Assembly: GCF_965641715.1 (NCBI RefSeq) | Contig: NZ_OZ282453.1 | Source: Escherichia coli | GTDB taxonomy: Bacteria > Pseudomonadota > Gammaproteobacteria > Enterobacterales > Enterobacteriaceae | Length of the DNA stretch: 64,000 nucleotides | Direction: 5' to 3' (one strand) | Shown here: positions 3,101 to 3,973 of the stretch, one piece after another | How positions within the stretch are numbered: the stretch's first letter is position 1 | Layout: the number at the start of each line of letters is the position of its first letter | Program-made: the position numbers and the translations under genes | The notes under the pieces: generated by a model | Told to the model about the DNA's origin: nothing | The model's database searches: none | The model's input: only the letters and a program-made list of their open reading frames with translations

Positions 3101-3973
3101 TTAGTTAATCAGCTTATCAATCTCGGCAAGGGGTAAATTTGCCATCTCTGCAACGTCTTCCCGAGACATTCCTTTATTCAGAAGACGCAGGACGAATTCT
3201 TGCCTTTCCTCCTGTCTTCCCCTCTCTTCAAACCACTGCGCCAGCGTCATCATAGACTCCCCTCCCGTTTCCCTGTCTCTCAGCACACCATAAAACAAAT
3301 CCGCTTGTTCAGTATGACCGCGTTGCAGCATATAGTTTTGCATGGCAACTAACTGACTTCCGCTAGTGTACCCTTCGTCAATCAGCGTGACCAGTTGCTC
3401 CAGCAATAACATTAAGTCGCGCTGGCGAATATGTTTTTGCAGTAGTTCGAGAATCGCAATCCGCCGATGTTGCATGATTTCGTCATCCGGTGTGATGGTG
3501 ATATCCACCAGCGGGAAAGGACTGTTATAGACGCGTCGCGCCAGCTCCGGCGAGTAAAACATATCAAACCAGCACATTGAGAGCGGATAAGGTGTGGCCT
3601 CGCCCTGATAAAACAGTATCGGCACCACCAGCGGCAGCTTATCGTGGTCAGCCTCCAGATGCCGGTGCATGGCGGCAATAGAATAACGCATCATGCGAAA
3701 AGCCATTTTCTTATCTGGCTTGCTTTGATGTTCAATCACTACATGCAGATAACCGGGATTGCCCTGCATTTGCACGGAATAGAGCACGTCCGTGCTGTGT
3801 CCTTTCAGGCTCTCTTCAATGAAACTCCCCGACTCTAAATGAAGCGTATTGAGGTCACAAAGTTCGCGTAATTCCACTGGCAAATGTATCTCCAGAAAGT
3901 CGCGAGCCGTCTCCGCATGCATTAAAAATTGTTTAAATACCGCGTCATGCGGTGTGGTACTCGGTGCATCCAT
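3101..3973 (-). CDS. rpnC: Rpn-family recombination-promoting nuclease / transposase-like protein (YadD/RpnC type, PDDEXK_7-like)
   Basis: 290 aa; position between panC and panD as for K-12 yadD; conserved Rpn/YhgA-like N-terminal region and the characteristic C-terminal tail. Confidence 0.8.
   Translation of the reverse strand: MDAPSTTPHDAVFKQFLMHAETARDFLEIHLPVELRELCDLNTLHLESGSFIEESLKGHSTDVLYSVQMQGNPGYLHVVIEHQSKPDKKMAFRMMRYSIAAMHRHLEADHDKLPLVVPILFYQGEATPYPLSMCWFDMFYSPELARRVYNSPFPLVDITITPDDEIMQHRRIAILELLQKHIRQRDLMLLLEQLVTLIDEGYTSGSQLVAMQNYMLQRGHTEQADLFYGVLRDRETGGESMMTLAQWFEERGRQEERQEFVLRLLNKGMSREDVAEMANLPLAEIDKLIN

Follow-up and report, generated by a model that had tools for sequence, protein, structure and literature searches.

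Why should a coding sequence carry, fifty codons before its stop, a ribosome-binding site stronger than the one at its own start? The question is raised by rpnC (yadD), a gene on the minus strand of a 64,000-nucleotide stretch of Escherichia coli DNA (NCBI RefSeq assembly GCF_965641715.1, contig NZ_OZ282453.1; the whole stretch is hereafter the window), in which a Shine-Dalgarno (SD) element is followed almost at once by two in-frame ATG codons. We consider it very likely that translation of rpnC also initiates internally, at this site, which makes rpnC a gene-within-gene toxin-antitoxin pair encoding a nuclease, RpnC-L, and a small protein, RpnC-S, that consists of the nuclease's tail. The site is identified as the rpnC-S start because its sequence is identical to that of K-12: in a K-12-derived strain (L002) the 30 nucleotides upstream and the ATGATG itself are the same as in the window. 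The rpnC-S start is thus already known; its detection here is correct but is a rediscovery, with nothing new in it. For this allele, initiation, production of RpnC-S and its action as antitoxin would follow by analogy with the K-12 work, and any part that the allele may play in phage defence is inferred.

3101-3973, minus strand: rpnC (yadD), full-length RpnC-L, a toxic PD-(D/E)XK nuclease (290-amino-acid open reading frame; Pfam, TIGR01784 and the annotation of strain RM9872)
3257-3266, minus strand: internal SD element GGGAGGGGAG, encoding Gly-Gly-Glu of RpnC-L (anti-SD duplex -10.8 kcal/mol)
3248-3253, minus strand: tandem in-frame ATGATG (M241, M242), the rpnC-S initiation site by identity to the K-12-derived L002
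3101-3253, minus strand: rpnC-S, predicted intragenic antitoxin of 50 (or 49) amino acids equal to the RpnC-L tail (function from K-12 experiments)

After GGGAGGGGAG (3266-3257) the minus strand reads TCT (3256-3254), ATG (3253-3251) and ATG (3250-3248); the two ATGs share the frame of the 290-amino-acid open reading frame (ORF), 50 and 49 codons before its stop, and the GGAGG core (3265-3261) stands 7 nucleotides from the first and 10 from the second. An earlier, sequence-only reading of the window had described this arrangement with a spacer of 4 nucleotides; the arrangement stands, and the distance from GGGAGGGGAG to the first ATG is corrected to 3. Its further statement that the two ATGs open a 50-amino-acid frame identical to the RpnC tail agrees with the translation of 3101-3253 (50 codons and a stop). 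The same reading had called so strong an SD within a coding sequence unusual, and we agree. When SD strength was scored as duplex energy with the 3' end of 16S rRNA at all 504 internal in-frame ATGs of window ORFs of at least 200 amino acids, only two reached -10 kcal/mol, both of them in rpnC. At -10.8 kcal/mol each, these are the strongest of the 504 (background mean -2.8), and the SD of rpnC-L's own start is weaker, at -5.1 kcal/mol, about half the duplex energy of the internal site. The motif GGAGG-N4-9-ATG occurs 6 times in the 64-kb window versus 9.8 expected from shuffled sequences; three of the six are the starts of long ORFs, and only two, the rpnC site and that at 12337, are internal to a longer ORF and share its frame. 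The internal SD is spelled with the glycine codons GGA and GGG, the rarer glycine codons in E. coli. The internal SD/ATGATG site is more than chance.

Weaver et al. 2019, alongside Meydan et al. 2019, are said to have been the first to map the internal start of K-12 rpnC. An internal start in yadD with locally raised synonymous-site conservation is already listed by Meydan et al. 2019 (10.1101/520783), and ribosome profiling with Onc112/retapamulin gives an internal initiation peak in each of the five rpn genes of K-12, among them rpnC (Zhong et al. 2023 PNAS, PMC10400941); the in-frame internal small protein of Rpn family members, to which the sequence-only reading had likened the site, is published for K-12 rpnC itself. 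The same study reports, from differential RNA sequencing (dRNA-seq), that every rpn gene has a transcription start within it, giving a short and more abundant transcript, and detects chromosomally tagged RpnC-S (tagged with SPA, for sequential peptide affinity) on blots in K-12. RpnL proteins inhibit growth and induce SOS, and RpnS proteins block both effects; for RpnA the block extends to DNA cleavage in vitro, where purified RpnA-S forms a complex with RpnA-L and stops its cleavage (PMC10400941). RpnC-S blocks RpnC-L-dependent SOS induction only when both have an equal number of 4-amino-acid repeats (PMC10400941 Fig. 4D), and mismatch by a single repeat abolishes neutralisation. Mutation of the ribosome-binding site and start codon in rpnA and in C. 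difficile rpn abolished the small protein (PMC10400941).

The site is kept in all 41 rpnC loci compared, which come from E. coli, E. marmotae and metagenomes and include complete and draft genomes: 34 have GGGAGGGGAG and 7 have GGGAGGGAAG, in each case followed by TCT-ATGATG. This conservation holds although the tail is hypervariable in these loci from ten codons past the internal start. Seven plasmid Rpn paralogues with 43-55% protein identity (Salmonella, Klebsiella, E. coli and Providencia) have ATG or GTG at the homologous position, in the motif M/V-T/N-I/L-A-Q/E and with 49-73 codons left to the stop; 4-9 nucleotides upstream lies a GGAG, GAGG or AGGAGGT element, within codons for different amino acids. 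In the alignment the paralogue start codon falls on the second of the two window ATGs (3250), so the rpnC-S product may be 49 or 50 amino acids long. Among the rpnC alleles themselves, that of E. coli C1 (L024, NZ_CP010116.1; rpnC at 1607-2551) has a GAA to TAA change five codons upstream of ATGATG. The stop truncates RpnC-L just before the tail and affects neither the internal SD nor the frame of rpnC-S, a natural split between toxin domain and antitoxin. At three further loci (L030, L046 and L049) rpnC is called as two ORFs, and the free-standing tail copy described below (rpnC-Ss) is kept.

What would be made from the site, and to what effect? The frame at 3101-3253 translates as MMTLAQWFEERGRQEERQEFVLRLLNKGMSREDVAEMANLPLAEIDKLIN. 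Against family models the RpnC tail matches the C-terminal end of TIGR01784 (E 7e-07) and, weakly, DUF4351 (PF14261; E 0.04), and its match to HTH_7 is also weak. An AlphaFold2 model of RpnC-S is all-helical, with a mean predicted local distance difference test (pLDDT) score of 81. The first helix contains a segment whose length varies between alleles, and upstream of the start lies a stretch that hardly varies at all.

3176-3223, minus strand: variable segment of helix 1, RGRQEERQEFVLRLLN, 16 amino acids, site of 4-amino-acid repeat expansion (alignment; lengths across alleles)
3299-3433, minus strand: nearly invariant stretch of rpnC, putative internal promoter and 5' leader (diversity among 16 alleles)

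Across the 41 loci the variable segments span 16-44 amino acids, built of units such as KGIE and RQEV, and that of the window is the shortest; Tandem Repeats Finder reported no 12-bp array in it. Codons 181-225 (3299-3433) are almost invariant, with a diversity of at most 0.008 versus 0.035 for the gene among 16 distinct rpnC alleles. This near-invariance fits an embedded promoter and leader of an rpnC-S transcript, which may accordingly be placed there. In the mechanism that we propose, ribosomes starting at 3973 would produce RpnC-L, a DNA endonuclease of the PD-(D/E)XK type whose C-terminal tail is helical, and the strong internal SD would recruit ribosomes to the ATG at 3253 or 3250 to make RpnC-S, the 49- or 50-amino-acid tail alone, probably translated from a shorter transcript with a promoter inside the gene. 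The long first helix of RpnC-S would pair with the identical helix of RpnC-L and so hold the nuclease inactive, and the number of 4-amino-acid repeats would set the length of the helix and with it which S fits which L. Because the same DNA encodes both, S and L would co-vary automatically. The 69-amino-acid gene downstream would be a duplicated tail, rpnC-Ss, with another helix length.

Other accounts of the site have to explain the same facts. The SD-like run might be a by-product of coding for Gly-Gly-Glu, or an elongation pause, followed by two ordinary methionines and giving rise to no separate protein. SD-like sequences do occur inside genes, and the window contains one more GGAGG-ATG in frame within an ORF (12337, minus strand), which has no known function. 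But the motif uses the rarer glycine codons and recurs in 41 of 41 loci, and paralogues with other amino acids at this point still have an SD and a start there; in K-12, moreover, the identical sequence shows a ribosome peak under initiation inhibitors and gives rise to a small protein that was detected by its tag (PMC10400941; 10.1101/520783). We regard this explanation as very improbable. We give as little credence to the view that proteolysis of RpnC-L, and not internal initiation, yields the small tail species. A C-terminal tag alone cannot separate the two routes, and the text of PMC10400941 reports mutation of the internal start for rpnA, rpnB, RpnP2 and C. difficile rpn, not for rpnC. 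Against cleavage, initiation-inhibitor profiling marks the site, and the internal transcription start yields a short, more abundant transcript; where ribosome-binding site and start were mutated, as in rpnA and C. difficile rpn, the small protein was lost. The C1 allele, whose stop codon leaves SD and tail frame intact, is likewise compatible with an S that is made independently.

A third account accepts the small protein and differs over its work: RpnC-S would be mainly a helix-turn-helix (HTH) DNA-binding regulator, acting for example on rpnC itself or on genes elsewhere, rather than a protein that inhibits RpnC-L directly. We think this unlikely. RpnA-S acts on RpnA-L in purified form, by complex formation and loss of cleavage in vitro, and the block of SOS induction by RpnC-S needs a matched repeat number (both PMC10400941), a dependence that speaks for pairing between the two proteins; the HTH matches obtained here, for their part, do not reach significance. 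Internal initiation, with RpnC-S as inhibitor of the nuclease that contains it, accordingly remains the reading that we prefer.

Several observations nevertheless weigh against that reading, or against extending it to the window allele in full. A standard consensus promoter scan returned nothing inside rpnC, and a relaxed scan only one weak candidate (-35 TGGTCA at 3393-3388, -10 TACACT at 3370-3365; 8 of 12 consensus positions), so that there is no convincing predicted sigma-70 promoter inside the gene. The structure of RpnA-S, 7TH0, was not retrieved by sequence or fold search with the predicted RpnC-S. The variable segment, at 16 amino acids versus 24 in K-12, is the shortest sampled; PADLOC 2.0 gave no model match for RpnC; and phage defence was shown only for the plasmid-borne RpnP2-LS, not for chromosomal RpnC. 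The place of rpnC outside the set of genes with mutated internal starts in the text of PMC10400941, already counted in favour of cleavage, belongs here as well.

The host gene itself appears sound. Positions 1070-5860 of the window correspond to the panB-panC-rpnC-panD-yadE region of E. coli, with rpnC between panC and panD; the best match to the region is E. coli O145 RM9872, at 99.6% identity, in which rpnC is annotated. Pfam Transposase_31 (PF04754) covers RpnC residues 7-207 (E 2.7e-87), and the protein scores 268.8 bits against the TIGR01784 Rpn family model, versus a cutoff of 52.1. Residues D10, D62, E81, Q83, R93 and PDDE162-165 are counterparts of RpnA D11/D63/E82/Q84/R94/PDDE, an equivalence judged by motif position and not by structural alignment, with the residue list taken from PMC5350276; mutating the listed residues in RpnA abolishes activity (PMC5350276). 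By these sequence comparisons the nuclease domain and its predicted catalytic residues are intact. A scan of viral contigs with RpnC found no relative, and Rfam, at E up to 1, reported no RNA family within 2500-4400.

A second copy of the tail lies downstream of rpnC.

2823-3032, minus strand: rpnC-Ss, 69-amino-acid duplicate of the tail, starting MEIKTRRETRQ-, with a 24-amino-acid variable segment (alignment to the tail)
3037-3042, minus strand: weak SD element AAGGGA, 4 nucleotides upstream of the rpnC-Ss ATG (anti-SD duplex -5.3 kcal/mol)

The gene lies on the rpnC strand, 68 nucleotides downstream of rpnC, and its product, when aligned with the RpnC tail over 56 columns, is 68% identical to it, the 8 gap columns forming two blocks of four residues; the free-standing copy proposed from sequence alone at 2823-3032 is thus real, with its 69 amino acids. 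A free-standing copy at this position has been described as rpnC-Ss (PMC10400941 Fig. 2I). On the DNA level the two copies are homologous to a point some ten codons upstream of the start inside rpnC, and Tandem Repeats Finder places a 12-bp array of 2.1 copies in rpnC-Ss. The rpnC-Ss region is found at a coverage of at least 80% in 1554 of 5426 complete E. coli genomes (about 29%); 175 complete E. coli genomes have this very allele, matched at 99% or more. Escherichia homologues of rpnC-Ss measure 55-77 amino acids, some of them with PF27070 HTH_Rpn_C. Their annotation is inconsistent, ranging from 'hypothetical' and 'transposase' to 'RpnC/YadD family protein' and, in RM9872 and ATCC 25922, a pseudogene 'missing N-terminus'. 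Small tail-like ORFs, MTIAERLIQKGF..., also lie downstream of plasmid rpn genes (IncI/IncF; L013 1517-1723, L015 1577-1759 and L016 1503-1736). In L013 and L015 the first codon of this ORF is precisely the methionine that corresponds to the internal start, and the ORF has a GCAGGAGCAGAG element of its own upstream; that of L016, as annotated, begins 21 codons further upstream.

Does rpnC-Ss then serve as a second source of antitoxin for the resident nuclease? The length of the variable segment differs between tail and Ss in all 19 distinct tail/Ss pairs assembled from loci L001-L052 and the window (24 in Ss against 16 in the tail for the window itself), the difference ranging from -12 to +24 amino acids and amounting to at least 4 residues. 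Given the published rule that a mismatch of one repeat abolishes neutralisation, this casts doubt on Ss as the cognate antitoxin: rpnC-Ss is usually not length-matched to the resident nuclease and may not be the cognate antitoxin for RpnC-L. Random pairing would give 1.16 length matches, with P(0) = 0.26 for the observed 0 of 19, and the mismatch of the 19 pairs is therefore not evidence of selection against matching; selection against equal lengths of S and Ss is accordingly not claimed. Tentatively, and with no great confidence, we suggest that rpnC-Ss is not a spare antitoxin and is instead a silent alternative tail that can be recombined into rpnC, or a decoy or orthogonal antitoxin that acts against different Rpn variants or against phage factors. 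If true, an alternative-tail rpnC-Ss would add a layer of cassette switching to the published system. In E. coli 98200 (L008, NZ_CP173567.1), rpnC at 409-1299 has a tail with an Ss-type segment, KGRQAVRQEVSQEF, and the -LINSN ending, with no separate Ss; from its sequence this allele is an apparent deletion fusion of the tail and the Ss copy. A tail/Ss fusion event of this kind is mentioned in PMC10400941.

Two other GGAGG-ATG sites in the window are recorded here for completeness. At 12337 (minus strand) a GGAGG-N5-ATG lies in frame, 25 codons before the stop of a 191-amino-acid ORF (12260-12835, minus strand) with a signal-peptide-like N-terminus; this ORF lies downstream of a long ORF at 9698-12106 (plus strand), which, from reading its sequence, we take to resemble the glucose dehydrogenase gene gcd. 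The internal GGAGG-ATG at 12337 may be chance. A further GGAGG-ATG, at 35898 on the minus strand, opens a 28-amino-acid ORF without an earlier in-frame start.

Taken together, the rpnC locus is a clean example of one gene that encodes a toxin and its own antitoxin from an in-frame internal start. Annotation pipelines still miss the arrangement, and intragenic rpnC-S is unannotated in every record that we saw, while a real internal start could be recognised by a reader with the sequence alone. The result for the window adds nothing new to biology.

Compared with RpnC-L/RpnC-S of K-12, the window pair occupies the same panC-panD locus and has in common with it the nuclease domain, the identical start region and the C-terminal helices, and the first ten tail residues of K-12 and window differ only at position 10 (E against K). 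The differences lie in length and in gene content: K-12 rpnC has 300 amino acids against 290 in the window allele, the variable segment is 24 amino acids (KGIEKGIQQGRQEVSQEF...) in K-12 and 16 (RGRQEERQEF...) in the window, and the window carries a downstream rpnC-Ss, which K-12 lacks. The published free-standing RpnS copies rpnC-Ss and rpnE-Ss (ypaA) lie downstream of rpn genes, and the 69-amino-acid ORF of the window is placed likewise; its own ATG is 11 codons upstream of the point equivalent to the internal start, where CGGAGAGAAACCAGGCAG is the decayed remnant of the ancestral SD and ATGATG, and its variable segment of 24 amino acids is 8 longer than that of the resident RpnC. RpnA-S (PDB 7TH0) is a three-helix bundle that dimerises through helix 1, and RpnC-S, which is of similar size, is predicted to be all-helical, with its repeat insertion point in the predicted first long helix. 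Tails are highly diverged between Rpn paralogues, and RpnC-S has no detectable match to 7TH0. Outside the Rpn family, Cas11d from within cas10d (cited in PMC10400941) is likewise a small C-terminal part that binds the large protein. However, Cas11d is a complementary subunit, whereas RpnS opposes the activity of the large protein.
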